Below, piece by piece: positions 3,103 to 38,553 of a DNA stretch of 64,000 nucleotides. Both the position numbers and the translations under genes were made by a program. Position 1 is the stretch's first letter. Every line of letters begins with the position of its first letter. The stretch is from a virus. The stretch is from IMG/VR virus record IMGVR_UViG_3300045988_116230, positions 84,126-148,125 of that record; one strand, written 5' to 3'. The notes under the pieces were generated by a model that was given only the letters and a program-made list of their open reading frames with translations, ran no database searches and was not told the DNA's origin.

Positions 3103-6100
3103 ATGGAAAATAAGGAACAGACATTGGTAGAGAAATCAGGTTTCTTACCATCTACTGGATTGAGAGGGTATAATGCCGGAGTTCCTACGCGATATGAAGA
3201 AGAATCTTCTCTTATTGAGGGAGCAAAAAGAGAGATGGAGAGGATGAAAGTAGGTTCATATACTCCCCCGGTATCAGCCATAAATCCTGATGATGATTCA
3301 GAAAAAGGATATGATATTAGCGGAATAGATACTTCTTTTGATGTAGACACATCTTTTTCTGGACTAAAATCGGCTCTGAATGGTGGAGATGATCCAAGAA
3401 AGAAGAAAGAGGAGTCTTATAATAAGTTAAATTCCATGATAAAATCTATTCAAGATAAATCAAGGAATACTTATTCTGGTAAACAAACGTCTTATGGTGA
3501 GGTTATAGCTGGTAATCAACAGTCATCTGCTGCTGATTTTGGTGTATTTGGTAAAGGAAGAACTATTAAGTTAGATGAAGCATATGACTTTTTATCCGAT
3601 GGGAACATCGGTCTTGCAAAGTTTAAAAGTTATATGCCAGGAAGGGATAATGAAGATTATTACGGAAGAAGTCAAACTACTTGGAATAAGGCTGTTAATG
3701 GCATAGGGAAGCTTGTCACAAAAACAGCATTATATGGTGTATCAGGAGTAGTAGGTATTATCCCGGCTGCGTATAATCTTATAAAGACTGGTACGTTATC
3801 TTCTGCATTTGACAATGATTTTACACGAACCATAAATGATATAGATGAAAGAATAAACCACTCTCTTCCTCATTATTATACAAGAGAAGAACGTGATATG
3901 GGATTTTTGCAGAGTCTTGGAACTGCAAATTTTATTTTTAATGATGTTATTGGAAATGGTCTATCGTTTATGACAGGAGCTATTTTGTCTGCCTACTTTA
4001 CAGGTGGGATGGGTGTGTCAAGTCTTGGAGCTGTTGGTGCTAAAGTAGGGATGAGGGTGGCCGGAAAGATGGCGGCGTCTAAGATTGCGGCAAGTGCTGT
4101 AAAATCTGCTTTTGGAGCGTATAGGGCAGGAGCGATGTACGGCAGGGCCATAGGCAATATGGCCAAGGTAGGAGTAAATACGTTTGTGGGCGCCGGCTGG
4201 GAGTCTGCCGTGGAGGCTCAGTCCTTTATGAAAGACTCTGAAAGTAAATACAAGGAATATTTTAAAAATATGTATGGTCGGAATCCTAATCAGTCTGAGA
4301 TGGCTGAATTTAAGAGTTCTATTTCCGATACGGCAAACAGCATATTTTTAGCTAATATGGGTATAGTTGGATTATCCAATTATCTTCTTCTGGGAAAATA
4401 TCTTGGAGTAGACACTGGTTTTGCTTCTAAATACATACCTGGATTAAAGGGTGTATCAAACACATATAGGGGATCAAAGAGTTTTGTAGATCGCTATTTG
4501 TTTGGATTAGGGACTAAGAAGGTAGCGGGTGATGCTGGAAGATTACAGACGGTAAAAGCAAATTTATTCCAGAAATCCTTAGCTACTATTTGGAATGTAT
4601 CTAAAAGACCCATATCTGAAGGTGTATGGGAGGAAGGCATGCAAGGTGTTGCTCAGCGCATGGGAGAAGATTTTATTAGATCAAGATATGATAAGACGTA
4701 TCTTGATGCTACGTCTTCTATAGTTGATTCTTTTTCTAAGGCCATAGCTGAACAATTTACAACCAAAGAAGGATTGAAAGAGATTGGCACAGGAGCCCTG
4801 ATTGGTGGTTTATTTGGAGCCAGAAATGGTGCTTTTGGTTTATATGAAAGGAGAAATAAAGAGCGTACTATTAATACTGATGTTGAGAAATTTAATAGTA
4901 ATAATGCTTTTACTTCTCAATCCGTAAAAGACTCTATGCGAAATTTAGCCGAATTTAATGCTCAAATGAATGATCCTGAATCAGATTATTATTCTAAATT
5001 TGAATTATCTGACAGAATGGGAATGTTAGAGGATACGGCTAACAATTTCAGGTCAATGGTTAAAAGCCTTGACGAAAATGAGTTGGCTTCTGAAATGAAA
5101 GTAGATGAAGAAACTGTTAAAAAATACAAGGAAGATATTATAAAAGATTTTGATAAGAAGTTAGCCAATTATAAAAAAGCTTCTTCTTTTGCTGAGGCTA
5201 TTACTGCTGAGACTTCATCTGATCTTTATCGATCTAATGTTGCTAATGCTGTGTTTAAGGGGTTGGATGCAGAAGATATAGCAATGGAAGCATCAAATGA
5301 TATTGCTGATTATGTAAATGACAATAATTTGTTTGATGATATAAATACGTTTTATTCATTATCAAGTCAAGCTTTTGATACAGTTAATCAGTTAAGGGAA
5401 TTGCGTAATGAGATCAATGATCTGAATGCTGAAATAGAGAGGTTGGCTACAACTCCGAGAAGAGTAGAGGATGGCAATGATACCGAAGCAGAGGCTATAA
5501 AACAAAAAACTATTAAATACGATAATCTTAATAAGGAATATAGAAGGTTGTCAGAAGATCTTCTTAGTAGTTATAAAGAAGTATTTTATTCTTTTGATCC
5601 TGGAGTATTAGCTCTTGAGTTGTTTAAATCCGAAACAATAACTGCTGAAGATATATTGAAAGCTTATGACTCTGTAGCTTCTTTAAGTACTTATATTGAG
5701 AATAATAAAGGGAAGAAAGAAGCAGAGGATTTAAGAAATATGGTGGTGAAATACCAGAAAGCCATTACCCAATATAAGGTTTTACGGTCATTTATGAACT
5801 CCATACAGGATAAGAAATTCATGAGACATGATTTTTCTTTATTTTCTAAGTTCTTAAATGATATGGTATCTTCTAATACTAAATCTATAGAAAGTGATCG
5901 TTTTTACCAGACAGAGGGTAATAATATCAGTTTGGATGAAAAAATAGATGAGCTTCTGAATAATGGAGAAATAAATTCAGATGAAGCATTTACCATGAAA
6001 GTATTTGGTCATCTAAACGATGGTATAACTCAGAAGCCGAAAGAAGATATATTGTCTGATTTTGATTATGAGTCGGCAATGGAAGATCTTTTGTCTGCAC

Positions 6101-9100
6101 CTATAGAGGTTAAAGAACGTATCGTAGATAAGATATATACAGGTAATCAAGATCTTTTATCTCCAAGGGAGAAGGAGATATATGAAAAGTATAAACAGGA
6201 TATTGATGATTATATATCAAATCTTGGTGATAGTCCGGCTAAGATGATAAAAGATTTATCAGATAAAGTTAGGAGACTTACTGAACATCGATCTGTGTAT
6301 GAGGATAATAAAGCTATTATTGATATGGCTAAATCCAATTTGGAACCAGATCAAAGGAAGGAACTTGATGATGCTATTTCTTCGTATGTTGATATAATGA
6401 ACAGACGGGATAAAGGGGAGAAGGTTGACGAAGATAAGCTTGCCGATTCTGTATTTACCATAGAAGATCTTGGCCAGGTTGGAAACATCACAGATCTCCT
6501 TCCTTATATCGAACAAAACAGGATTATTGATAAAGGTCGTATTTCCGAATCTACGTTAAGTAATTTTGGGGAGGATGATACCAATATAGATTCTCTTGTA
6601 AATGAGTTAGATGAATCCGATAATACGCCTGGAGCTAACATAGATAGTGCCCAAAATCCAGAGACGTTGATGGTTAGAAGAATATCCAATGATGGCAACG
6701 AAAGGTATGAAATTGCGGGTCTTAGAGCCGATAAATTTATATCTTCTATAAAATCATTGGTTCCTATTCAAATAAGCTCTGAAACGAACGCTAATGGTAC
6801 TAAAAGGTATTCTCTTAACATAGGTGGAGAAACGGCTACTATAATTGAACTGCCTTATCATGCGAGATGGTCTATAGACAAAGAATCGGCTCGTGTTCTT
6901 AACCGTTACACAGACGTGTCTATTCAGGACGTGGGTAATTCCTATTCTTTGGTTTATAAGCGTCTTGATTCAGATGAATTGGTTCCGTACAGAACGGGTG
7001 TCGGATTCGGAGAGAATGAGGTAGATAAAATAGATCAGGAAGCATTATCTTCTTTGAAAAAAGGAGATAAGGTTAATCTCGAAATAGATGTAAATGATAC
7101 TTATAATCAGTCTCTTTTTGCCGAATACAATGATGCTGTTCAGTCCGGCGATAAAAAAAGAATAGAATCTGCTGAGAATAAACTGGTGTCCAATATGGTT
7201 ATCAAGGTCATGAGTGGGAACAGATTCGTTTCTGTTGTAAAAGCTGATACAGGAGGCATAGATGGTATAAGTAAAATAAGAAGAACGGCTTTTAACAAGT
7301 GGAAGAAAGATGCTGGTCGGTCGGCTACCATCAGCGTCGGCACGCATGTTGTTGCCCAGACTCTTCCCGGAAGACCGGTGTTTAACATGAAGGTGAACGG
7401 TCAAGGATATGGCCAGATAGAAAATCTCCCTATTACCGAAAAAGGTGCTGAAAAAGTATCTGATGTCGGATATGTATTAAATGGCAAAGTCGTGCTTAAG
7501 AACGGATCTAAATACACAGGATTCCCATTTGCTTATTCTATATTAAATGACAAGGGGAATAATTACAAAAATATAAGAGTTCCGGTAGTTGTTATCAAGG
7601 GTAAAAACGGTCTTAATTATCTTTTCCCGGTTAGTCTACGTTCTGTAGAATCAGAGGAAGGGCAGAAATGGATGTCTTTTATAGATATGCTGCTTGAATC
7701 TGGTGATTCTGAATTGTCACAGATGGGTCAAGATGATATACAAGATCTTAATGCGTATCTAACCAAGTTAGGTCTTGATCCGGCTTCGTATCAAGTATCG
7801 TACTTGAATCCTATTTCAGGGCTTAGAAAAGCTCGTGAGGCTATAGAAAAATTATCTACGGTTCCTGATGTTGTTAAGTGGGTAGAAGATGGAAGTAGGA
7901 GTGTTAAAGACATTGTGACGTCTGAAGTAGAATCTGGAATAGATTTTGAAGGTGAGATGTTTGTTGCTCCTAAGATCAGGATCCAGTTTGGTAAATCATC
8001 TTCCAGACCTAAATCACTTATAGAGGACGATCTTCCTTTCTCTGATGAGGGTAAGACCGTTACTTCTAAGGTAGAAGATGTGGAAGTTTATGAAGAGGAA
8101 ATGCCAGAGGAAGGGGCTGCCCGGGAGACTCAGCCGGCGCCACCGGCTCAACCGGCTCCTGCGGCACAAGCTACGCAGTCTTTACCTGGCAAGAAGCGTA
8201 CCTCCAGGAAAAACTTCTCTCTTATGTTAAACGAAATAGAATCTCATATAGAAAAAGAAGGATTGCCGCCTTATGCTAATATTTTTGATTTTATAGCAAG
8301 GAAGATTGTAGGAGGTGACTTGAGGTTTCTTCGTGAGAGAGGTAATCCTAAAAGTCTTAAGGAGGAAATGGGATTAGAACCTAAAGGAACAGTAGGTGAT
8401 AAAATATCCACTCCTTCCAGTAAAGGTGGTAAGACCTTAGAAGAATACGTTTCTTGGCTTCGTTCTCAAACAGATCAGGTGGTGGTTGATTATGTTGGGC
8501 CAAGATCTGATGAACAAATTATATCAGAGTTGAAAAACTTTTTGAAATATATTAATTTTGTTCCAAGTAAGGCTTTAAATTATTCTCTTAGAGTCAATGG
8601 CATGGATACCCTAAAAGAATATGGCACAAAAGAGGAAGTAGAAAAAATGGAATCTGATATCAATAGTTTGGTTTCTAAAGTTTTGCCTACGGTGGATAAT
8701 AAAACTGTAGAAGATGTTTCTACTGCAATAAAATCAAACAACTTGCCTGCCATATGGAGGCCCGTGGAAAGCCTTGATATGACAAACGAGGAAAAAATAG
8801 AGTTTTTGAATAACGTAGCAGATTTCCTTAGCGGCATACCAGAGTATGCCGCTGTTGTGGAGTCTATAGAGTCAGAATCAGATAATATTTTAAATGATGG
8901 AAAAGAAGGAAGTGCAGAAGGCGGTGCAGTACGCACTGAGGAAGATGGCGATAAAAAGGGAGATGGAGAAGGCAAAGGACAATCCAGAACAAATGTCGAA
9001 GTTGAAGGAAATGTCGAATTACCTGGATCTACAAAAGGAGAAATAGAAAAAGACGAACCTCGTATATCCGAAGAACCGCTTACTCACATATCAAGGGTAA

Positions 9101-12873: not shown

Positions 12874-13041
12874 AAAAAGTATTAAAATATTTGCTATTTA
12901 AAATCCTGTTCCTATCTTTGCTCCAGAAACAATGAACAACGAGATCCCACCTCTGGTTGTTTGATGTTGAAAGATATTTTTGGCTCATTAGGGTTTGTCA
13001 TAGTGGGATCTGACATTCTCTTTTGGGCCTATTTTTTTATC

Positions 13042-13926
13042 ATGGATAAAGTTTCTGTTTTTGAAAGTTCGGATTTTGGAGAGCTTAGAATTATTGTAGA
13101 TCCAAAAGGAGATGTTTGGTTTGTGGCGTCAGATGTGGCTAAATCTCTTGGATATATAAATGCTAAAGATGCGGTAAAAAGACATGTAGATGATGATGAT
13201 TCTATGCTTTTGCAAGTATCTGATAATCAATGGGGCGTAAAACGATCTATATTGAAAACCAGATATATAGATAGTATAAGAATAATTAATGAATCTGGTT
13301 TATATTCTCTTATATTATCTTCAAAATTAGAGTCTGCTAAGAGATTTAAGAAATGGATAACATCTGAGGTTCTTCCTTCTATTCGTAAAACAGGAGAATA
13401 TAAAACAAGTTCAGGCGGCAAGGGAATTTTGGTTCCTGACTTTTCTAATCCAGCAGATGCAGCAAGAGCATGGGCCGATCAGTATGAAGCTGCTCAGAGA
13501 GCTATAGCTGAAAAATCTCAGGCAGAGGCAGAGAAGCAACAAGCCTTGAAAACAATAGAAGATCAGCGTCCAGACGTTGAGTTTGCAGAATCGTTCAAGA
13601 AAGTTGATAATGATAGAATGTGGCTGATTCGTGATATTGCCAAAAAGTTAGAACAGAATGGTGTTATCATCGCTGAAAAGAATCTTCGCTCATTTCTTGA
13701 AGAAGCTAAGTTTATGTTTAGAAACGGTCTTGGCAAATGGGAGTTGTACAGTAATGTAGTGGCTAAAGGATACGGTGTGTATAGATCATATTTTGTAGAC
13801 AAGTATTCTGGAGAAAGGGTTAATCAACAAACTATCTACATGACTGGTGCCGGATATGAAGTGACCCTCAATGGCATAAAAGGAAAACTTAAAAATGTAT
13901 TTTTAAAATATGGTAAATTTTCTTGA
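13042..13926 (+). CDS. Bro-N domain antirepressor-like protein (N-terminal Bro-N: ELRIIVDPKGDVWFVASDVAKSLGY; C-terminal KilA-C-like region)
   Basis: classic Bro-N/AntA signature; start moved to internal ATG at 13042 (track ORF starts 12961 with TTG and a hydrophobic junk N-terminus). Confidence 0.7.
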   Translation: MDKVSVFESSDFGELRIIVDPKGDVWFVASDVAKSLGYINAKDAVKRHVDDDDSMLLQVSDNQWGVKRSILKTRYIDSIRIINESGLYSLILSSKLESAKRFKKWITSEVLPSIRKTGEYKTSSGGKGILVPDFSNPADAARAWADQYEAAQRAIAEKSQAEAEKQQALKTIEDQRPDVEFAESFKKVDNDRMWLIRDIAKKLEQNGVIIAEKNLRSFLEEAKFMFRNGLGKWELYSNVVAKGYGVYRSYFVDKYSGERVNQQTIYMTGAGYEVTLNGIKGKLKNVFLKYGKFS

Positions 13927-13976: not shown

Positions 13977-14073
13977 GTTTCTGTCTTTTCTGAAAATACT
14001 TCTCTTCTATAGGAAATAAACACACCCATATTCCACCCTGCAATCATGATCTTTGTTACGTGCTTCATGCACG

Positions 14074-14094
14074 TATGTTTAACAATTAAATACT
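14074..14094 (+). repeat. copy 1 of exact 21-mer TATGTTTAACAATTAAATACT, 8 nt upstream of ATG 14103; contains TAtgTTTA (Bacteroidota -7-box-like) and a TTAA-N3-TTAA dyad
   Basis: identical 21-mer at 60450-60470. Confidence 0.6.
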
Positions 14095-14102
14095 ATAAAA
14101 TT

Positions 14103-15111
14103 ATGGGTGGTGATAAAATCGTCCTTTTAGATGGAGCCGGGGCTAACGGTGGTGGTGCAGCCACTAATGGTCTTCTTTCAATGATTCCCGGCATGTTTGC
14201 TAATTTGATAGGTGGTAATAAAATGGATCCGAATCTGGTGGCGGCTTTGATGAACGGTCGTAACAACCAGGACGGTTTCGGTGGGGCTAACGGTTGGTGG
14301 CTCTGGATAATTGTTTTGTTCTGGCTGTGGGGGTGGACGCGGCTTCGGTAACGGTTTTGGAAATGGCGGTGATTGTTGTGCCAATGGTTTGCCGGCTCAG
14401 TTGAATAACGATTACGGTCGTGAACTTTTGATGCAGGCAATTCAAGGTAATCGTAGCGCCATAGATCAGATTGCTTCTGCTTTGAACTGTTCTACTACTC
14501 AACTTCAAAACGCTATCTGCAACGTACAGGGTGCCATTGATAAAGTAGCTGGTCAGGTAGGTATGACTTCTCAGGCTGTTATCAACGCAGTTCAACAACA
14601 AGGTTGTGAAATAGGAAATCAAATCAGCTCTTGCTGCTGCAATCTGAGTTCGTTGATCAATCAAAGCACTTGCCAGACTCAGGGAATGATTACTCAGCAA
14701 GGTTTTGATAACCAGCTTCGCACGTTGGAACAAACCAATGTCTTGCAGAACGGTCTCAACCAAGGTCTGGCTAACAATCGTGAGCAAGCTACAAGCCAAT
14801 TCAATATCTTGTCTGCGAAACTTGACGCCCAAACCGTTATGATCAATGACAAATTCTGTCAGTTGGAAATGAGGGAGATGCAGAACACTATTGCTCAACT
14901 TCGTGAAGAAAAAGCGGCTTTGACAGCTTCGGCATTATCTCAGCAACAAACCCAGAATATCGTTGGTCAATTACGCCCGACGGCCGTCCCGGCCTACCCC
15001 TCTTGTTCTCCTTACCAGGCTTATACTTGGGGACAGGTATTCGGAGGAGGTTGCTGCAATAACGGATGTGGATGTAACAACGGATGTTGCAATAACAACG
15101 CTGCTGTCTGA
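14103..15111 (+). CDS. Gly/Cys-rich low-complexity protein: Gly-rich N-terminus, Trp-rich hydrophobic segment (WWLWIIVLFWLWGW), GFGNGFGNGGDCC block, Q/N-rich helical core with CC/CCC motifs, C-terminal GGGCCNNGCGCNNGCCNNN tail. Two track ORFs (14046..14351 frame 0, 14311..15111 frame +1) would fuse if the G5 run at 14329-14333 were G4
   Basis: both frames remain Gly-rich across the junction; frameshift or sequencing error at tgGGGGGtgg. Confidence 0.45.
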
Positions 15112-15134
15112 TTTTATTAAGAGAGGAGGCTAAT

Positions 15135-15548
15135 ATGGCTTGTGTTTCTAAAATAGGATCGTTGTATGAGATGGTTACGAAGAATGTTATTGTCAGTACG
15201 ACAAATACAGTCTTCGGTATTAACCCACGGGCTTGGATCGCCCTTCCGTGTGAGGGTCTTATCCTTCTTAAGATAAGGCAAGTAGTCCCCACAGCCGGAA
15301 GTGCTCTACCGGTACAGATTGCGGTCCCGGCAAACAGCACAGTTTCAACAGTAGGATCCGACACCTGTTGCCCGGTTACGGGAGTGAATGTCGTGAACCC
15401 TATTAACGTAGCTGTCACGGGTGCTGCTATGGTAAATGGCACAGAACGCCTTCTGTACTTCAATAAAGTTCGTGGCGTGTTAAGATTAATGGATTGTTGT
15501 GTTCCGACAACAACAGCCCAGGCGTCTGAAGTTAAAGCAGGTAAATGA
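15135..15548 (+). CDS. hypothetical protein with CC doublets (DTCCPVTG, MDCCVPT), beta-rich; strong GAGGAGG SD
   Basis: ORF track; SD 7 nt upstream. Confidence 0.5.
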   Translation: MACVSKIGSLYEMVTKNVIVSTTNTVFGINPRAWIALPCEGLILLKIRQVVPTAGSALPVQIAVPANSTVSTVGSDTCCPVTGVNVVNPINVAVTGAAMVNGTERLLYFNKVRGVLRLMDCCVPTTTAQASEVKAGK

Positions 15549-15598
15549 TTTCAGTAGGGTGATGAATATCATCACCCTATTTTCACCTAACTAATATT

Positions 15599-16093
15599 TT
15601 GATCATGTTTTCAGATTTGAAGAAAGGGTTTCAGGTACATACCCTTGATACTAATACAGTACCTAAATACGAATTGGGAAAGGTAGTAGCCGTATCCGAA
15701 CCCAGGTGTCTTCCTCCTCAGCCAGGTCAGTATCAGGCGATGCAGACCCGCGTGGTGGATCTGACGGTAGAGCTCACTGGCGAAACCAAGACCTATACGG
15801 TCCCGGAATCCCAGAATGTGGCTAAGGCTATGGGCATAACATTATCTACCAGCATAGATCCGATTATGAACGAACTGAATGCTATAAAAAACACCAGTCA
15901 AGACATAATAAACAGCGTAGATGCCCATCGTGCCAAGATAGAGGCTTGTGAATCTATATTAGAAGACATCAATCCGGCATTCAAACAAACGAGAGAGCAG
16001 GATCGTAAAATAGCTGGTATAGAAAATAAGGTGAATGACCTTACTGATTCATTCGAAGATTTAAAGAAGTTAATTGTAGAACGTTTGAAATAA
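15599..16093 (+). CDS. hypothetical coiled-coil protein
   Basis: ORF track. Confidence 0.45.
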   Translation: MIMFSDLKKGFQVHTLDTNTVPKYELGKVVAVSEPRCLPPQPGQYQAMQTRVVDLTVELTGETKTYTVPESQNVAKAMGITLSTSIDPIMNELNAIKNTSQDIINSVDAHRAKIEACESILEDINPAFKQTREQDRKIAGIENKVNDLTDSFEDLKKLIVERLK

Positions 16094-16100
16094 GTATAAT

Positions 16101-16469
16101 ATGATAGTATATGATTTAAATTCAGGACACAGAGAATATCTTGGATATGACGAGATAGAAGACAGACGAGGTGGAGGCAGAGGCAGAAGCCGGCGTTCTG
16201 ATGGGACGTACATGGGGTATGGTGGTGGTATTTACGACCATTACGGTATGCATGAGAAGATGAAAGAAATGGAAGAGCGCGAAAACGAGCTGGAAGAAAG
16301 GGAAAGAAGGCTCGAAGAGCGCGAACGTCGTCATGAAATGGAGGACCGGGAATACCGGAGGATGGGTTACGAATCCTACCCGACCGATTACTATGGAGAC
16401 GACAGATACTACGGTGACGGACCTCAGATGCGTAGAGGTCGCGGACGTGGCAGAGGTCGTTCTTATTGA
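16101..16469 (+). CDS. Arg/Gly/Glu low-complexity protein (RGG/RGRGRGRGR termini, ERERR repeats)
   Basis: ORF track; composition read from translation. Confidence 0.45.
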   Translation: MIVYDLNSGHREYLGYDEIEDRRGGGRGRSRRSDGTYMGYGGGIYDHYGMHEKMKEMEERENELEERERRLEERERRHEMEDREYRRMGYESYPTDYYGDDRYYGDGPQMRRGRGRGRGRSY

Positions 16470-16562
16470 GGAGCAGACGCAGAGGGTCCAGCTTATCAGA
16501 AATATGTAGATACTTACGGCTACCATTTTTCTAATGCTCTCGCTGATGAGGCGGTAAAGAAG

Positions 16563-16856
16563 ATGGTCAACGTCGATGGATCCAAGAGGATCTGGAAGCA
16601 GCCGGAAATAAAAGATATTTTTGAAAAGTGCGGAGCGAAGAAGCCGGATAAAGCGACATGGGGCAATGTCCAATATGTCTTTGCAATGTACTATTCGGAT
16701 GGTTTTCCGAAGGTCTTCAAATGTGAGAACGAGTTGGTGAAAGCTACGTTAATGTATTTGGATGATCCGGATGCTCCCGAAGGAGTAGCCTTTATAAGAT
16801 GGCTTGCCGTGCAAGATTACCTCGGCGAAAAAATAAACTGGAAGGATCTGACCTGA
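16563..16856 (+). CDS. hypothetical protein
   Basis: ORF track. Confidence 0.4.
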   Translation: MVNVDGSKRIWKQPEIKDIFEKCGAKKPDKATWGNVQYVFAMYYSDGFPKVFKCENELVKATLMYLDDPDAPEGVAFIRWLAVQDYLGEKINWKDLT

Positions 16857-17021
16857 GATCCAGACCCAGGTCCTTCCGGTGGTGCGGGAGCCATAGTAAA
16901 AAATATGATTCCCGCATTCCCGTTTTTCCCGTTTGGAAAAAAAAGGAATAAAAATATTATACCGGTCGGCGGGCAATAGAATACCCGTGGCCGGTTTGTT
17001 TCACATAACTTTTTTTTTGAC

Positions 17022-17198
17022 ATGAATATAGCACACGAATCTAAATCGAATAAAACCCCATTGTATTTAATAGGAGAGTTGATTGGCGTACCGAATACGG
17101 TTATGGACTCAGCATTGCATGAACTGAAAGATAGAATAGACAAAGACCCTAAATATAAAGATGTTAAAAATTGGCTCGAATCTTTACCCAAGATCTGA
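17022..17198 (+). CDS. small hypothetical protein (58 aa), not in track (<60 aa)
   Basis: clean ORF ATG..TGA followed by terminator. Confidence 0.3.
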   Translation: MNIAHESKSNKTPLYLIGELIGVPNTVMDSALHELKDRIDKDPKYKDVKNWLESLPKI

Positions 17199-17220
17199 AC
17201 CTATTTTTCCCAATACCAGG

Positions 17221-17250
17221 CCCGATGCGATTTTAGCGTATCGGGTTTTT
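17221..17250 (+). terminator. rho-independent terminator CCCGATGCG-attttag-CGTATCGGG-TTTTT
   Basis: read directly. Confidence 0.55.
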
Positions 17251-17325
17251 ATTTTAATTCATATTGTTTTATTTTAAATCTAATTAATTTATGAATGTCG
17301 TACTTTTGTTGAAAAAGTATTTTTT

Positions 17326-17553
17326 ATGGAAAATAAGGAAGATTACGTTGGTTACGAAGATCAAGAACTGTGTAACCGGTATTACAAAGAGGCTGAAGCC
17401 ATGAGGCAAAAGCAGGACTGGTCTCGGCTTAGGGCTGTCCCTGCTCCGGCCAAGGGAACGCCATCGCCCGGCTGGGGTCAGCTTGGACGTGGAAGTGATG
17501 TCCGTGTTAAGTATGTGAGTATCAATTCAGGATTGGGGGGAGATAGATTATGA
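17326..17553 (+). CDS. hypothetical protein
   Basis: ORF track. Confidence 0.4.
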   Translation: MENKEDYVGYEDQELCNRYYKEAEAMRQKQDWSRLRAVPAPAKGTPSPGWGQLGRGSDVRVKYVSINSGLGGDRL

Positions 17554-17768
17554 CCGTAGAAGAATTAGCTAACAAAAGATACGGTGGCGAATTTGTTTTC
17601 ATGTTTGGTCATCTTGAAGGTAGAACAAGATTCGTTTTTGAATGCTTTGATCCTAAACCTGATTACGAAGGTAAAAGCACTTATATGGTTTCCTATTTTG
17701 AGAAGGGACTTTGCAGAAGAGATGTGGTAGATGTGCCGTGTTATATGAATGTTTTGCCAAAATCATGA
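17550..17768 (+). CDS. hypothetical protein
   Basis: ORF track; ATGA-type overlap with previous. Confidence 0.4.
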   Translation: MTVEELANKRYGGEFVFMFGHLEGRTRFVFECFDPKPDYEGKSTYMVSYFEKGLCRRDVVDVPCYMNVLPKS

Positions 17769-17968
17769 AAACACTACTTTTAAATGTACCTGTATTTTCC
17801 GGTAAGATTATTTCTCCTATATGGATTAAGGCCGTAAGAGATTTTCAATCCAAATCCAAGTCAGAAAGAGACCTGTATTGTTCGATCTGTGGATGTGCAG
17901 GAGGGTGTAACTTGTGTAATGATATAAGTAAGTATAGGATTTCAGAACAATTAAAATATTACAAATAA
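17765..17968 (+). CDS. hypothetical Cys-rich small protein (CSICGCAGGCNLC)
   Basis: ORF track 17711..17968 trimmed to internal Met. Confidence 0.35.
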   Translation: MKTLLLNVPVFSGKIISPIWIKAVRDFQSKSKSERDLYCSICGCAGGCNLCNDISKYRISEQLKYYK

Positions 17969-18246
17969 TGGAATTAAAAGATTTTAAAGATGTAATTAGA
18001 ATGATGACAAAAGAAGAGTTCGAATCAACAATTGAAGAAGATATTAAATTCGTTGAAGGATTCAAGTATTTCTTAAGACATGATGATGCTACAAGGATAG
18101 TGGAACACATCAAGTCCGTGTTAGAAGCATCAGTGGACTACTATTATCCTAATCATCCTAAACCTGAAGCAGAACCAGGAGACATGGGAGAAGTTTCTGA
18201 TGGATACCACACTTTCAATATCCGAAATAACATTAAAACAATATAA
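17968..18246 (+). CDS. hypothetical protein
   Basis: ORF track. Confidence 0.4.
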   Translation: MELKDFKDVIRMMTKEEFESTIEEDIKFVEGFKYFLRHDDATRIVEHIKSVLEASVDYYYPNHPKPEAEPGDMGEVSDGYHTFNIRNNIKTI

Positions 18247-18515
18247 TTTCATTATAAGGTTTTAATGTACCAGAAATGGTCCGGATATTAGCCTAAGCCT
18301 TGAAACGAAGGCTACGTTATTTGAGAATATATAGTTACCTACGGATGTTTGCCCAAGTCTGTAGCTCTAAGGCAAGCGATTAAACAGGAGTAGTGTATTT
18401 GCGAAACAGTGTTGCTTGCATCAAAACCTCTTATAACATTGGCGATGGGTACTAACAGGATGAAATATTCCTGACTTATGTTGAATAAACATTGAAAACG
18501 TTTGTAGATATGGTG
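18247..18515 (+). ncRNA. candidate omega-RNA (IscB guide RNA) region: ~260 nt non-coding, hairpin-rich, immediately 5' of and abutting the IscB start
   Basis: position relative to iscB as in known OMEGA systems; hairpins such as GCCTT-gaaacg-AAGGC; no comparison possible. Confidence 0.3.
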
Positions 18516-19730
18516 TACGTACAAGACATAAATGGTAAACCTATGATGCCTACAACAAGGCATCATAGGTAAGACGACTGCTTAAAGAAAACAAGGCAGT
18601 TGTTGTGAACCTATGTCCGTTTACCATCAAATTAATGTACGTAACATCTGATTACAAACAAGAAATTGTGTTAGGCGTTGATGCTGGTACTAAACATGTT
18701 GGTTTATCAGCAACGACGAAAAGCAAAGAGCTTTACAGCAGTGAAGTTATTCTTAGAAATGATATCGTAGATCTTTTGTCTACCAGAAGAGAGCTACGGA
18801 AAGCAAGACGGAACAGGTTAAGATATAGAAAACCTCGTTTTGATAACAGAGTAAAAAGCAAGCGTCTAGGATGGATAGCACCTTCGGTGAAATACAAAGT
18901 AGACGCCCATATTCGTGTTGTTGAAAATGTTTGCTCTATATTACCAATATCTCGTATTGTTATTGAAGTAGCTCAATTCGATACTCAAAAGATTAAGAAT
19001 CCTGAGATATCAGGTAAAGAATACCAGGAAGGTGATCAACTTGAGTTTTGGAACACAAGGGAGTATGTTTTAGCAAGAGATGGACATAAATGCCAGTATT
19101 GTAAAGGCAAGTCAAAAGATTCTATACTGAATGTTCATCATATTGAGTCTCGAAAAACCGGAGGGGATTCCCCTTCTAATCTTATAACTTTATGTGAAAC
19201 ATGTCACAAAGAATACCATAAAGGTAATATAGATTTAAAGATCAGAAGAGGCAAGTCGCTTCGCGACGCAACCGTAATGGGAATTATGAAATGGAGGTTG
19301 TATGAAGAGTTAAAATCCAGATACGACAGAGTTTTTATGACGTTTGGTTACATTACGAAACATAATCGGATTAAATATGGGATTGAAAAATCCCATACAT
19401 CCGACGCGTTTGTCATTTCTAAGAATATTAATGCGAAACGAATCGAACGTCAATATTTAAAACGTTTAATTCGTAGACATAATAGACAAATACATAAAAT
19501 GAAAATTTTAAAGGGGGGGGAAGAAGAAAAACAATCAAGCTCCTTTTGAGGTTTTCGGTTTTAGGTTGTTTGATAAAGTGTTGTATAACAATAAAATATT
19601 CTTTGTTTATGGAAGGAGAAAATCAGGGAGTTTCAATATCAGGGATTTCAACGGAGAAAATTCAAAAGATGTTTCACGCAAAAAGTTTAAACTCATTAGA
19701 GGGAAGAGGCATCCGATTATATTAAAGTAA
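18510..19730 (+). pseudogene. iscB: IscB-like RNA-guided nuclease (PLMP N-term, RuvC-I, RRxRR bridge helix, RuvC-II, HNH, RuvC-III, C-terminal domain) interrupted by two frameshifts. Segments: 18510-18569 (frame 0), 18569-19520 (frame -1, the 314-aa track ORF), 19521-19730 (after a G8 run 19513-19520)
   Basis: motifs read from translation; details in the IscB finding. Confidence 0.65.
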
Positions 19731-19767
19731 ATGAACGGATTTAATAAATTTAATAGAAAAACGTATC

Positions 19768-20073
19768 ATGTATAATAAAGAAATAGTAATATGCGCGGCC
19801 ATCTGGGTGCAGGACGGCAAGAAGCGTCCTCATCAGCCCACCAATATACCATCCGGCGCCGTATTTTGTGGATTGAGACATTGTTCTATCATTTCTCAGT
19901 TTGCGGCATACGGTATAGCTCATAAAAACCGCAGTGTTCAAGGATTTTTGACAAGCAAGAACCGGTTTCTGACGAGAGAAGAAGCGTCTGAGCTTGTTAA
20001 GAACAATAATCAGGAGATGGTAGTAGATAGGAATGCTATTAGAGAACAATTGTATTCAGAAGATTTATATTAA
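19768..20073 (+). CDS. hypothetical protein
   Basis: ORF track. Confidence 0.45.
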   Translation: MYNKEIVICAAIWVQDGKKRPHQPTNIPSGAVFCGLRHCSIISQFAAYGIAHKNRSVQGFLTSKNRFLTREEASELVKNNNQEMVVDRNAIREQLYSEDLY

Positions 20074-20090
20074 CTAAAAAACAAAACAAC

Positions 20091-20441
20091 ATGGGGTTTA
20101 AAATCAAAAAGTCAATCATTTATAATATGATGAACGGCAGTCGGGTAGAGTACGAATTTGACAACAAGAATTTAGATCATATCACATTTAAAGGTGATGG
20201 TAAAGAATCTTTTTCATTTAACAGAGTACTTGTTGAAAATTTAATTGAAACATTTGAGACTATGCAGGATATATACTCTGATAATTACGGAATTAAGGTT
20301 TATACCGGTAATTGCATAATTCAATTGAACGTAAATCCAAAGGACCCCAGTGAATCCTTTTTTGACGTATATGATAGAGATGAGATGAAATTGATATACG
20401 GAATAAAGATCAGTATTCTGAAAGAAATGTTTATCATATGA
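20091..20441 (+). CDS. hypothetical protein
   Basis: ORF track. Confidence 0.45.
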   Translation: MGFKIKKSIIYNMMNGSRVEYEFDNKNLDHITFKGDGKESFSFNRVLVENLIETFETMQDIYSDNYGIKVYTGNCIIQLNVNPKDPSESFFDVYDRDEMKLIYGIKISILKEMFII

Positions 20442-20755
20442 TTACCAAGCAGGACATACAAGCAGCAGCATCGTATATTTTCCGAAGCAGTTTTGTCTCG
20501 GAGGACCAGGCAAGGAAAGCAATGGTAAAAGCCGGCAATAACGCTACCAAGATCCTCGTCAAGACCTTTAGAGGCAAGTTGTTCAAGAAAGCTTTTGAAA
20601 GAGCCCGTAGAGGAAAGGATATCAGTTCTTTTGAAAGACAGGAAAAAGAAAGTGGTTTCAATTTTCTACATAATCCTAATAATGGTCGTATGCAAAGCGG
20701 TCATATTATAATAGATGGAATTGGTCTGTTTAAACAAATAATTCATGAAAGGTAA
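20438..20755 (+). CDS. hypothetical basic protein
   Basis: ORF track. Confidence 0.45.
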   Translation: MITKQDIQAAASYIFRSSFVSEDQARKAMVKAGNNATKILVKTFRGKLFKKAFERARRGKDISSFERQEKESGFNFLHNPNNGRMQSGHIIIDGIGLFKQIIHER

Positions 20756-20919
20756 AAAAGTTGATATTCGTTTAGGCAGAGGTCTGGCGAATCAGATTAA
20801 GATAAACAAAACCATCCCAGTGTCTCATAAACCAAAAGAAGAACGTCGAATGATGTTTGTTTGTGGTGATGATATTGCTTCTCTTATAAAGCGGTTTGAA
20901 AATGAATCAAAGTAATATA

Positions 20920-20952
20920 AAGTCGGACATGTGTCTTGTCCGACTTTTTTTA
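20920..20952 (+). terminator. rho-independent terminator AGTCGGACA-tgtgtct-TGTCCGACT-TTTTTTT
   Basis: read directly. Confidence 0.65.
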
Positions 20953-20964
20953 TATATTTGTGGC

Positions 20965-21288
20965 ATGGCAAGAGGTTATTATTGGATATCACAAACAGAT
21001 GAAACGTTAAATGGCAGAAGCTATTACGTGGCTAAGATAGTAGGAGATATCACGTTTGATACTAAACGAAAAAGAATCGTATTTCAAGCTGATAGGTATT
21101 TCCCTGTAGGATCTGTTTTCCATTTTACGCACAATTGCTTCAACTATATCATAACTTGCCGACTTCGTAAGCCGGGGCTTTGGTTTGAAGCCAGGAGAGA
21201 AGATTCAGGCTCTATTTGCCCTGAAGATATTGAGCGCTTTGAATCGGGAAGGTTTATACACCGAGATGGGTACATGCATTACATATAA
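20965..21288 (+). CDS. hypothetical protein (track ORF 20896.. trimmed to Met after terminator)
   Basis: ORF track. Confidence 0.4.
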   Translation: MARGYYWISQTDETLNGRSYYVAKIVGDITFDTKRKRIVFQADRYFPVGSVFHFTHNCFNYIITCRLRKPGLWFEARREDSGSICPEDIERFESGRFIHRDGYMHYI

Positions 21289-21430
21289 GCTGAACTTGAC
21301 GATTTTTCGTCAGATTATAATTTTTTTTCATATTATTTTTAAGCCATCAGACTGAGAAGTTAGGTGGCTTTATTTTTTATGATATGCTTGATTTTTAACT
21401 ACCTTTGTCTCATAACAAAAATGTTTTACT

Positions 21431-24400
21431 ATGACATCAACGTGTATTATTAAAAGAGATAATAAAAATAAAGTTGTTTCTGTCTCTACCAGATCAGGGG
21501 ACAGGTCTATGTTGTTTGATAAAATAGCATCTATTCCTCTTATGGAGAATAGGGAACGGGCTACTACTGTTTTTAAAACCGTATTTTCTAATAAGTTCTT
21601 AAAGGCTTTTGGTGACTGGAGAAGGAATGTACCTGTTAATAAACAGGCTTATAATAAGGTAAAATCCAACATCGGCCTTATTCCGGAATCCTATAGAGAA
21701 AGGGTGCTGGATAAGGCTTCTAAGATGAGTAATCCTATTCTTGTGTCAAAATCAGATGCACCTTATGGAATCCGAGAATCGGGCTTTGGATTCTACAGCC
21801 AAGATCTGGGTGATAATATTATGTTGGTGGATGCTATGGTTCCGTCAAGTATTTCCGTACCGGAAGGACCTGGAATAGACGCCGGGCAGTATTTACAAGA
21901 TGCTATATCTTCGGACTTCACTCCCGTATCTATGGTACAGGATAAGGGTGTTAATTATATGGTTATAAAAGACGGTCTTAAGATATTTAGCCCAGAAGAG
22001 TTACCACAGACAGATTCTAATCCTGTGGGTGTAACGTATCATACTGGAGAGCCTCGTTTGTTTTTCATGAACGATCGTAGTCAATTATTTGAAGATTACG
22101 GAGAAGCTCTTCGCTCTGGAGGGAATGATATTAGAATAGGATTCTTATCCGGCACCGTTCAAGAATCTGCCGTGGATGGCGTGGCAGACATTACTTACAA
22201 GGCTGGAAAGTATGTTCTTAATAATCCCAAGTCTTTTATACCGGTCATGACCGCTTCTGCTTCTACTTCTTTATCAACAAAAGGTGGTATAATTAACTAC
22301 CTTATAAAGAAAGGTCTTTTGTCCGGATCTAAGATATTCGATTCGGAAACAAGAAGCTATTATCTTACAGGAGAAGGACATACAGGACAAATTAGACTTT
22401 TCAATTCAGCATTATCCTACACCGAGCTCCGTAATCATTTTGGTTCCGATGTTTCCATGAACGACCAAGGTATGATAACCATAAATTCATTGGATAATAG
22501 TAAGGTAACTATGAGACTCGCCACCGGAGGAACAGAAAGAGTTAGCAAGGAGCAGATAAAGAGCGATCTTAAGTCTGGAAGATACAATGAATTGGATGCT
22601 AAATACGATCACTTTGATGCGCTTGTAGTTTCATTTATATTAGAAGACAATGATCTTTATGCTGATACTAAAGCTAAGATAGTATCGGATTATAGCCAAG
22701 AGGAACGTAATCAACGAAATTCTATTGTTGAGATACTGAAAACGCTGGGCGTTAGTGTCGTTGGCATGACCGATTATATAGAGAAGTACCAAACTAAATA
22801 CGGACACGAACCTTCTGCTAAGGCATTGGCGGATATTGCCAATAACGTAATAGCAGTCGGTGAAGATGCTACTTTGTCTGACTTAGTAGAAGAAACAGCA
22901 CACTTTCTCGTAGAGGCGTACAGAGATCAGAATGCTGTTGAATCTGTTTTGCAAGATGTAGAAGGCACTGAAGAATGGAATCAGTATGCAGGTCAGTATT
23001 ATAATACATACGGTAAGGTATATGAAGGCTCTGAACTTGATAATGCTGTTAGGAGAGAAATTCTTGGAAAGATCCTCGCCAGGGAGATGCAGACCGGCAC
23101 AGCACAGGCGCCGGTAGAGCCCACCTCCTTCCTGGGGCGCGTCCGGCAGCTTCTCTCTGGAATTGTAAACTGGCTTAAATCAGCTTTATCAACCCAAAGA
23201 CAGGATTTGAATAACGTTATTAAAAACATTCGTGATCTTGCCATTACTGACATAGATAAAGGATTTGATACCTCTCTGTTAAAGGATAATGACTTTACAT
23301 TATATTCCCTTTCTTCTATGAACAAGAACAAGTTTCTTGAGTCTAAGATCCGGGCATTGAGAAAAACGTTAAGAGACTTACGTCAGATAAGCTCTGATAG
23401 GGCTGTAACTACGTCTATGACCCTTGCCCAGCTTAAGACCATAGAAGATAAGATAAATAAGGTAGAGACCGAAATAGACAAGAATGAGATGGCGGCCGCC
23501 ATGAACAGCATGATCTCCACAGCCGAAGCTCAGGTTAGATACTTAAGCAACGTAGTAAATACTATCCTTCATGGTGATACCAAAGACGGTAAGCTTCACT
23601 TCAATACCAATGATCGAAAGAACGTAGATATTATCAACAATCAGGTTCTTCCGATCATGAACGATCTTCGAGGATATATCCGTAACAGAAGTACCGAATT
23701 TGATGAACGTGAAAAGCAGGATTATACAAATAGGATCAATACCGTCATTGCCGACATCAATGGTATTCAGTCTGATATTAAATCAGTACAAGACCTTGAT
23801 GAAAGCACGTTGCTTGATAAGTTAATGAACGAACTTCATGTGCCGGCAGATAAGGTAAAGAGAGTAAAAGAATTTTTCGACAAGGTTCAACACGATGTTT
23901 CTTGGATAAGTAGGTGGTTTGGTATATTAGAGCATTCTTCCAGTCCGTTCAATAACGCTCTTGGAGCTATGATTGCCAAAGACAATTACAATGCGATGGT
24001 GAATGCCCAGCCCGCCATATCCGACTTCCTGGCATATGCGAAAAAGCATGGTTTTAACAAATCTGAATTTGAAAAACTGCTTCAGAAAGTAGACGGCAAA
24101 ACTTCTAATTACCTTCGTAGTGCTCTTGATATGGCTAAATACGATCGTAATAAGAAGCTGGCGCAGATGCGAGCGTTTGCGACTGCCATGAACATAGAGA
24201 TATCAGAAGAAGAAATTGGTGATGTGGTTGACAATAACCGTAATTACGTATTTAAAAGAGAAGTAGTTGACAAGGATGGAAATACGGTTACTGAAAACGC
24301 TAAATTCAAACCATCGTCTGATAGAGTTAATACCGATATTTTTACCATCGAGCAGGAAAAGATCTATACAGAGCAGATGGAAAAGTGGGATGCTGAAAAT

Positions 24401-28030: not shown

Positions 28031-28232
28031 ATGTTGTCAATTATTGCTATCTTGCAAACAAAAATCATGAGACGAAGATTTCAAATAGGGATGGGGGGGG
28101 GTAAATCCCTCGCTTATAATCAATAAAGGCATATACATCCAACATGTAGATGGAGGATTATATACAAAAGAAAATTGGTCTAATAAAGGATATTCCAATG
28201 ATCTATGCAATGGAATAGCTCTTGTAGATAAA

Positions 28233-38197: not shown

Positions 38198-38553
38198 AAG
38201 TCATTGTCTTTAAATCCTTCCGGGTAATATACGACATACTTCTTACCGTCCTCCGGCGTCATGGCGAACTGCATGTAGTTATTACGATTACGATGCTTGC
38301 CATCCAATCCTCGTTTCCAATACAGGATACCGTCTATATCCACATAAGACCGTCCGCGTTCGGCTCTAACCACGTCCGTGTGTAGCAGATACCCGTCGGA
38401 AGACACGATCCACACTTTATCCCCTTTGTTTAAATAAGATATTCTTTTTCTTACAACAACCTTTTTCTTATTATCCAATACAAATTCCTCATCCGTCATA
38501 TTCTTCATCCTCCTCTTCTTCTGTTTCAAAATCAATTCCATAACACTGATCAT
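38194..38553 (-). CDS. hypothetical protein
   Basis: ORF track. Confidence 0.45.
   Translation of the reverse strand: MISVMELILKQKKRRMKNMTDEEFVLDNKKKVVVRKRISYLNKGDKVWIVSSDGYLLHTDVVRAERGRSYVDIDGILYWKRGLDGKHRNRNNYMQFAMTPEDGKKYVVYYPEGFKDNDL

Follow-up and report, generated by a model that had tools for sequence, protein, structure and literature searches.

Why does a phage genome carry, within its structural genes, what looks like a broken gene for an RNA-guided nuclease? We addressed this question for a 64,000-nucleotide (nt) stretch of the IMG/VR virus record IMGVR_UViG_3300045988_116230 (positions 84,126 to 148,125 of that record; hereafter the window). An earlier note, made from the letters alone, had placed an IscB-like nuclease with a putative omega RNA (ωRNA) at positions 18247-19730, had called its occurrence in a phage unusual, and had suggested that it was either a decaying insertion sequence (IS) relic or a phage-borne weapon. 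Cas9 descends from IscB-ωRNA systems, which are also compact genome-editing tools; most demonstrations of their role in nature have so far involved bacterial chromosomes and plasmids. We found that the locus is an IscB-ωRNA (OMEGA) element of 1.55 kb, at window positions 18218-19767. It is a new member of an already known kind; what is informative is how its family behaves across populations of crAss-like phages.

The window encodes IscB in three pieces

The coding region lies on the plus strand and is divided among three reading-frame segments. Piece 1 (18510-18569) is a PLMP-type N-terminal segment that opens with the ATG at 18510, reads MVYVQDINGKPMMPTTRHHR, ends at the TAA at 18570-72, and aligns to OgeuIscB from residue 4. 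Piece 2 (18569-19519), which has matches to Pfam profiles and to IscB structures in the PDB, contains RuvC-I, an arginine-rich bridge helix, RuvC-II, HNH, and RuvC-III; its frame is that of a 314-amino-acid (aa) open reading frame (ORF) at 18605-19549 and is open back to 18569. Piece 3 (19521-19730, with the stop codon at 19728-30) encodes a conserved C-terminus of ~70 aa, the presumed domain for interaction with the transposon-adjacent motif (TAM), and is in frame in intact relatives. The window has no uninterrupted iscB ORF, the frame being broken at 18564-72 and 19513-20. The PLMP-type start at 18510, the 314-aa ORF, and the run of eight G at 19513-19520 are all present as the earlier note had described them.

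Joined, the three pieces give a protein of 406 aa, the length that had been estimated for the reconstituted protein and that intact relatives have. The profile search that had been proposed as a check matched the joined protein with Pfam RRXRR (PF14239) at residues 2-175 (model positions 1-174 of 174, E 2.6e-60), a match that spans the first frame break without interruption, and with HNH (PF01844, E 5.5e-11). The best matches among solved structures were all IscB (OgeuIscB 7utn/7xht and others), with E ~1e-42, or 1e-49 when a family profile was used. Residues D58 of RuvC-I, E153 of RuvC-II, H210/H211 of HNH, and H296/D299 of RuvC-III are invariant across relatives, and the zinc site of the HNH domain has the form CxxC...CxxC. 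In the PLMP domain, residues 2-110 of the joined protein align with residues 4-113 of OgeuIscB, including GKPLMPTTR. Profiles, structures, and invariant residues agree with the order of motifs first read from the letters, and the window gene is an IscB, with a split RuvC domain, an inserted HNH domain, and a bridge helix.

Two details of the reconstruction differ from what had been proposed. Intact 406-aa relatives contain ...TTRHGKVRRLLK... and ...KILKGGKKKNNQAPFEVFGF... at the two joints, and the first joint of the earlier reconstruction, correct overall, is off by two residues (HHR, where relatives have HGK). The C-terminal extension, given as 69 aa, is indeed conserved: the last ~70 aa hold many invariant residues and are contiguous and in frame in intact relatives. 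Their identity as the TAM-interacting domain of IscB could not be confirmed, as they had no sequence match to the C-termini of solved IscBs, the profile alignment ending at residue ~335, and AlphaFold2 run on ten relatives of 87-95% identity gave an unusable C-terminal fold (predicted local distance difference test score, pLDDT, 34; predicted template modelling score, pTM, 0.30). We also considered type II CRISPR-Cas9 and rejected it: no CRISPR repeat array was found within 14000-24000, the protein, of 406 aa, has no recognition (REC) lobe, and the structure search returned IscBs as best matches and only weak matches to small Cas9s (YnpsCas9).

An ωRNA scaffold precedes iscB and takes its predicted guide from the flank

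The earlier note had placed an ωRNA in the hairpin-rich region 5' of the ATG and had proposed a covariance-model search for it. This search matched the Rfam family HEARO (RF02033) at 18218-18456 on the plus strand over the full length of the model (1-211) with 99.3 bits (E 1.6e-20), above the gathering score of 83 bits; it was the sole Rfam match in the window. HEARO matches above the cut-off were also found in relatives, and an alignment of 25 non-identical copies had compensatory changes in 17 of 48 pairs predicted by RNAalifold. The same alignment contains two conserved hairpins 3' of the HEARO core (18456-18473 and 18478-18492). The ωRNA scaffold, which forms the guide-proximal end of the element, extends from 18218 to 18492.

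The first helix pairs element nt 1-7 with the 7 nt preceding TAGCCTAAG, and it covaries across subfamilies (ATATCCG/CGGATAT, ATAATCG/CGATTAT, ATAACCC/GGGTTAT, and ATAATCA/TGATTAT). Because this pairing covaries and the upstream flanks differ, the scaffold starts exactly at 18218, which is 29 nt 5' of the start that had been suggested (18247) and within the last codons of the upstream ORF; its end is at ~18492. The first hairpin region (18226-18279) is exchanged between subfamilies. Judged by its sequence, this is a bona fide ωRNA, located directly upstream of iscB on the same strand.

The predicted guide, GGATACCACACTTTCA (18202-18217, plus strand), is the flanking phage DNA directly 5' of the scaffold, its length of 16 nt being assumed from other IscBs. 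The rule that the guide is the sequence flanking the scaffold, and the need for read-through transcription, have been described by Meers et al. (2023, PMC10055086). The sequence at this position differs at every insertion site of the family (~40 distinct 20-nt flanks). At least 120 IMG/VR contigs contain the target, GGATACCACACTTTCA with ATGAA directly after it, and the window's own left junction between guide and scaffold was found in 3 contigs only.

Guides of relatives also have counterparts in the window. Six sites match such a guide, followed by ATG, with at most one mismatch in 16 nt (+17600, +17764, -37182, -38542, -49698, and -49783). They are plausible empty targets, at which the systems of relatives would cut this genome.

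The element inserts directly 5' of ATG

A search for element ends and for TnpA had also been proposed. Comparing copies at different sites fixed the ends at 18218 and ~19767: homology between copies extends from 18217/18218 to ~19763-19771, with none outside. The left end begins ATATCCGAAATAAC... in the window's subfamily and ATAATCG[AC]GAATAAT... in another, and this guide-proximal end, being the ωRNA, is highly structured. The right, TAM-proximal end (19731-19767, plus strand, ATGAACGGATTTAATAAATTTAATAGAAAAACGTATC), at which the homology between sites stops, consists of ~16-37 weakly conserved nt after the iscB stop codon and is followed by ATG.

In the window this ATG (19768-19770, plus strand) is the start codon of the ORF 19768-20073. 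All 15 of 15 independent right flanks begin with ATG, which in most cases starts the next gene; at position 4, directly after the ATG, 19 of 31 sites have A and none has C. From this comparison of flanks we infer that ATG is the TAM. At the junction of the element itself the letters are ATA, which differ from the TAM by one base; this would protect the donor from self-cutting.

Insertion lies directly 5' of ATG and leaves no target-site duplication. This was seen in a pair of filled and empty sites, in which a 358-nt ωRNA element without IscB lies in locus L020 between ...GATCAGTGTT and ATGGAATTG and the empty counterpart is the window's minus strand at 38542; empty counterparts were also found for L044/L045 and L041/L073. 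No TnpA match was obtained in the window or in 80 related loci, and the 1.55-kb element leaves no room for TnpA. The tnpA gene is likewise absent from ~98.5% of iscB loci (Meers et al., 2023, PMC10055086). The window element is most likely a non-autonomous copy of IS200/IS605 type (ISC) with only the ωRNA gene and iscB.

ωRNA-only elements of ~358 nt occur at L020 3994-4352, L044 608-~960, and L013 1117-~1470. They score 91-113 bits with HEARO, their first helix is ATAACCC/GGGTTAT, they contain a hairpin (GGAGACC/GGTCTCC) resembling a terminator, and their right end resembles that of full elements. Such elements could supply extra guides in trans.

The element belongs to a large phage-resident family under purifying selection

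The window shares 93% identity with the Epsilon crAss-like phage crAssE-Sib (OR575929, with the organism name spelled 'csAssE-Sib' in the record), which lacks the element at the window's site. Close relatives of the IscB are encoded on 286 IMG/VR stretches, and several contigs hold 2 to 4 copies. Among the best 80 of these 286, identities are 79-99% and nearly all are one unbroken ORF of 400-406 aa. The ORF is intact in 73 of 79 relatives and shortened in the other six, two of which are cut by the end of the locus. With its frame repaired, the window gene gives ratios of nonsynonymous to synonymous polymorphism (pN/pS) of 0.09-0.21 in comparison with relatives, and of 0.17 with the nearest intact copy (L002). 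The element family is under purifying selection and probably active.

At least 8000 proteins in a large protein database matched at E <=1e-10, the best 120 of them with at least 86% identity, and one protein cluster, named 'RRXRR protein [Bacteriophage sp.]', is present on 547 contigs. By comparison with bacteria, we found a relative in 2 of 185,579 species-representative genomes, in both cases on a short phage-like contig, and on these counts rejected a host-bacterial origin. This IscB clade is essentially phage-resident. More distant IscBs, mostly labelled HNH endonuclease, are present in records of Clostridium, Ralstonia, Staphylococcus, and cyanobacterial phages, and HEARO has been noted earlier in Staphylococcus phages. 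Contrary to what had been supposed, such a nuclease is not unusual in a phage: the clade is extremely common and often multi-copy in Epsilon crAss-like gut phages, and IscB or HEARO occurs in other phage records.

A literature search found no paper describing IscB in crAss-like (Crassvirales) phages. The locus gives access to a very large IscB clade, almost confined to phages, in one of the most abundant groups of human-gut viruses; the genes of this clade are now labelled 'HNH endonuclease', 'RRXRR protein', or 'hypothetical'. The ends, the guide's position, and the inferred ATG TAM could all be read, without experiment, from dozens of natural insertion sites.

Two database entries deserve mention. 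A 20-kb contig of a 'Vibrio olivae' assembly (L204, NZ_JBHMEP010000019.1) carries an 86%-identical IscB element whose left flank is that of the gut-phage loci L035/L038; it is probably gut-phage contamination of the Vibrio assembly. An IscB relative of 520 aa among NCBI proteins (P0001) has an internal tandem duplication of ~114 residues, from the bridge helix to HNH.

Nested left junctions accompany the loss of upstream genes

Relatives collinear with the window and carrying the element at the same site all have an identical right junction, together with a dozen different left junctions, each of which ends at scaffold base 1. We compared the left breakpoints with uninterrupted counterparts and found that ATG follows the breakpoint in 14 of 19 junction classes (P = 1.9e-20, taking the ATG frequency in the window, 0.020, as the null).

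In the window the left junction truncates a gene. The ORF at 17968-18246 (plus strand) is a remnant, the N-terminal ~84 aa, of a WDGH + Tad2-like gene and aligns to crAssE-Sib (L001) 3800-4076; homology to L001 ends at 18219, and the last 29 nt of the remnant with its stop codon come from the element. In the corresponding region of L001 (3822-4849), the intact homologue encodes a 251-aa WDGH + Tad2-like (Thoeris anti-defence 2-like) protein with PF25311 and PF11195; besides crAssE-Sib, at least 120 IMG/VR contigs have this gene intact. The window has lost ~500 nt of this gene along with a downstream 91-aa Cys-rich ORF.

Several copies are recombinant. L011 and L019 (element at ~5700-7260) are chimeras of two subfamilies: one contributed the left end with the ωRNA, the other the right end together with the 3' third. 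The middle 700 nt are mosaic in most copies, indicating frequent recombination between copies, and co-oriented tandem copies exist in relatives. Given these chimeric and tandem copies, the simplest route to a new left junction would be for a second copy to insert at an ATG upstream and then to recombine with the first. A one-step deletion at one end, catalysed by TnpA, is an alternative route; the chimeric L011 and L019 favour insertion and recombination for those cases. The fixed right junction, the nested left junctions, and the chimeric copies suggest how such elements retarget and remodel the accessory genes of phages.

A further set of copies has a left junction near window position -49698. 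Compared with L066, the loci L065, L068, and L061 have deletions of 6, 10, and 25 nt adjoining the scaffold. These deletions alter the guide without a counterpart ATG, and the resulting guides would lose their TAM-flanked match in the empty site.

Two private frameshifts interrupt an otherwise clean gene

The two reported frameshifts are both present, although the first is not the plain -1 slip that had been described. Lesion 1 (18564-18566) reads CAT where relatives have GGTA, that is, two substitutions and a 1-nt deletion (net -1 nt) that change HGKVRR into HHR followed by a stop. Lesion 2 (19510-19520) has A3G8, with the G8 run at 19513-19520, in place of A4G6 in relatives (net +1 nt). Neither lesion is present in any of the 205 loci fetched. 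Programmed frameshifting or an alternative code was rejected because in relatives a single ORF runs through both sites, because the first break terminates at a TAA, and because under code 11 the window's giant ORFs are open.

We compared the window with four close relatives per stretch and found three private indels in 11.2 kb, namely lesions 1 and 2 and one at 14329, all of which break ORFs that are intact elsewhere. At 14329, extension of G4 to G5 splits a 354-aa Cys/Gly/Asn-rich gene into the ORFs 14046-14333 and 14311-15111; the gene is intact in relatives and is annotated as 'spike protein/glycoprotein' in crAssE-Sib. Between genes, the run at 28093 is G9, compared with G4-G6 in relatives. 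This pattern suggests a systematic over-extension of G runs in this assembly, and since the tendency hits a probably essential gene, it points to a technical artefact at lesion 2. Lesion 1 may be real, as it is not in a homopolymer. Apart from the two lesions, iscB is clean, with no in-frame stops, and the ωRNA and both element ends are intact.

Whether the interruptions are technical or reflect a very recent inactivation is roughly evenly balanced. That the gene is intact in the real phage, with one or both frameshifts arising from sequencing or assembly and the copy as active as its relatives, is close to an even bet. This explanation would account for there being just three private indels in 11.2 kb, every one of them ORF-breaking and two of them G-run extensions (14329 and 19513) like the G9 run at 28093, and for a coding sequence that is otherwise clean and has a pN/pS of 0.17 to L002; it fits less well with lesion 1, which combines two substitutions with a deletion outside any homopolymer, with the giant ORFs of 2136 and 2140 aa, which are unbroken, and with the six shortened ORFs among 79 family members (two cut by the locus end), which indicate that real inactivation occurs. 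A recently dead copy, a true pseudogene whose ωRNA is a mere remnant or works in trans with the IscB of a co-infecting relative, is a serious contender that we hold to be somewhat short of an even chance. Both lesions are unique among the 205 loci, a second iscB was not found in the window, and the IscB-less elements of relatives indicate that ωRNAs without an adjacent iscB are maintained; the gene has accumulated no decay, however, and a likely essential neighbour is broken in the same way. The description of the locus as a decaying IS relic is not supported, given the pN/pS of 0.17 to the nearest intact copy, the intact ωRNA, and a second break that fits the G-run pattern and may be technical.

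RNA-guided homing as the proposed mechanism

We consider it probable that the locus is best explained as an IS200/IS605-type element that spreads by RNA-guided homing. According to this model, read-through from the co-oriented upstream phage genes would produce an ωRNA made of ~16 nt of phage guide at its 5' end (18202-17) and the scaffold of the element. IscB bound to this ωRNA would cut DNA in which the same 16 nt are followed by ATG, that is, related phages without this junction, and its own ATA junction would be spared. During co-infection the break would be repaired from the element-bearing genome, and the element with its adjacent deletion would be copied into the rival (homing or gene drive). 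To reach new sites, a transposase presumably supplied in trans would insert the element precisely 5' of an ATG, in most cases a start codon, and no target sequence would be duplicated. Recombination between co-oriented copies would then delete the intervening DNA and create a new guide; in the window it would have destroyed the Tad2-like gene.

Several points weigh against this model. Five of the 19 left junctions break the ATG rule; they are deletions of 4-25 nt beside ATG-type junctions and are probably due to slippage. The rule itself could follow from target choice by the transposase alone and is not proof of cleavage or homing by IscB. A tblastn search with approximate IS608/IS200 TnpA queries gave no match beyond noise at E <=1 in the window, 80 loci, and two bacterial-assembly loci, which is a weak negative. 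The 96 nt at the TAM-proximal end fold no better than shuffled sequences (z -0.25 to +0.9), and mobilisation of TnpA type is unproven because this end has no significant hairpin. The iscB gene in this assembly cannot yield a full-length protein, and guide length, TAM, and activity are deduced for this clade from the comparison of genomes.

A bolder proposal, which we put forward tentatively and regard as possible though doubtful, is that the IscB-ωRNA element in Epsilon crAss-like phages is a self-retargeting gene drive. A copy inserted at an upstream ATG would recombine with the resident copy, fusing the scaffold to a new flank. A new junction at an ATG-flanked breakpoint would have its guide aimed at the undeleted ancestral allele, and this aim is the basis of the gene-drive proposal. 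A genome bearing the deletion would convert co-infecting relatives, and accessory genes upstream of the element would be progressively erased, in this case the Tad2-like candidate anti-defence gene, with IscB-less ωRNA elements adding guides in trans. If true, this would be natural evidence, on the scale of populations, of RNA-guided homing shaping virus genomes.

Two other functions were weighed against the homing model. The suggestion of a weapon against competing elements would make the system a domesticated phage weapon or defence directed at competing phages, mobile elements, or host DNA, and we consider it unlikely. The guide does match a gene in at least 120 related phage contigs, the six window sites matching relatives' guides and ATG make cutting between phages plausible, and homing endonucleases are known from a review to double as killers of competitors. 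Yet the guides are never chosen, being the insertion flank (~40 different flanks), and they were seen to match only orthologous sites of relatives; the copies are scattered, multi-copy, and chimeric, and phages that are nearly identical differ in whether they carry one, which is the mark of a selfish element. A guide made of flanking phage DNA, with its target in at least 120 related contigs, fits selfish homing instead. The labels 'HNH endonuclease' and 'RRXRR protein' that GenBank/RefSeq phage records give to homologues would suit an ordinary protein-only HNH homing endonuclease with an incidental structure upstream. This we regard as extremely improbable and have ruled out, because the RuvC-HNH-RuvC architecture matches solved IscB-ωRNA complexes and the HEARO match lies above the cut-off and covaries.

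Comparison with known systems

The window system resembles OgeuIscB-ωRNA (PDB 7utn, 7xht, 8csz) and other IscBs in domain order, in its catalytic residues, and in having no REC lobe, and it shares with OgeuIscB a large HEARO-family ωRNA just upstream on the same strand. OgeuIscB has 496 aa, whereas the window protein has 406 aa and aligns in two blocks, ~30 residues after the bridge helix being missing. The C-terminal ~70 aa have no detectable sequence similarity to the TAM-interacting domain of OgeuIscB, and the TAM of OgeuIscB is NWRRNA, compared with the inferred ATG(D) here. The RF02033 model is matched in full; the window ωRNA adds two conserved 3' hairpins, and its first hairpin is swapped between subfamilies. 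Meers et al. (2023, PMC10055086) noted extra 3' hairpins beyond HEARO as a general feature of IscB ωRNAs.

A functional parallel is the GstIscB element of the IS605 family from Geobacillus stearothermophilus (PMC10055086). There too the scaffold forms one terminus, the adjoining flank serves as guide, outside transcription is needed, the element has no tnpA, and a role in homing or retention has been proposed. The TAM of GstIscB, TTCAT, reads ATGAA in the IscB orientation and is the target of the transposase (Meers et al., 2023, PMC10055086), in agreement with the ATG and the preference for A at position 4 seen here. Unlike GstIscB, the window element is phage-borne and not chromosomal, its cognate TnpA was not found, the 'other allele' would be a co-infecting phage rather than a sister chromosome, and its family includes chimeric copies as well as nested deletions next to the element.

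Free-standing homing endonucleases of T4-like phages (Seg and Mob; intronless homing) are similarly located between conserved phage genes and variably present, and a review describes how they are expected to cut rival genomes in co-infection and to be copied in with flanking markers. The window element differs in that its specificity would come from a flank-derived RNA, each junction retargeting it automatically, and in that it also transposes. Two TnpB genes were reported for crAssE-Sib in a paper that does not mention IscB (Viruses 2024, PMC11054128). These TnpBs occur in the same phage group and belong to the same superfamily of RNA-guided transposon nucleases; unlike IscB, TnpB has RuvC only and a 3' guide. 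Cas9 shares the HNH domain inserted in RuvC; the window IscB differs in having no REC lobe, no nearby array, and one guide only, which the site of insertion determines.

To what is known of such systems the family adds a simple ATG motif that places insertions before start codons, the retargeting that would follow from adjacent deletions, chimeric copies, IscB-less ωRNA elements, and the loss of a Tad2-like gene as a side effect. For developers of genome-editing tools, an IscB of 406 aa whose TAM has 3 nt would be of interest as well.

Other features of the window

Upstream of the element, the window contains an antirepressor-type gene with Bro-N and KilAC/ANT domains (12961-13926). The ORF at 16101-16469 encodes a 122-aa low-complexity protein rich in Arg, Gly, and Glu, with a 21-nt tandem repeat at 16270-16325.

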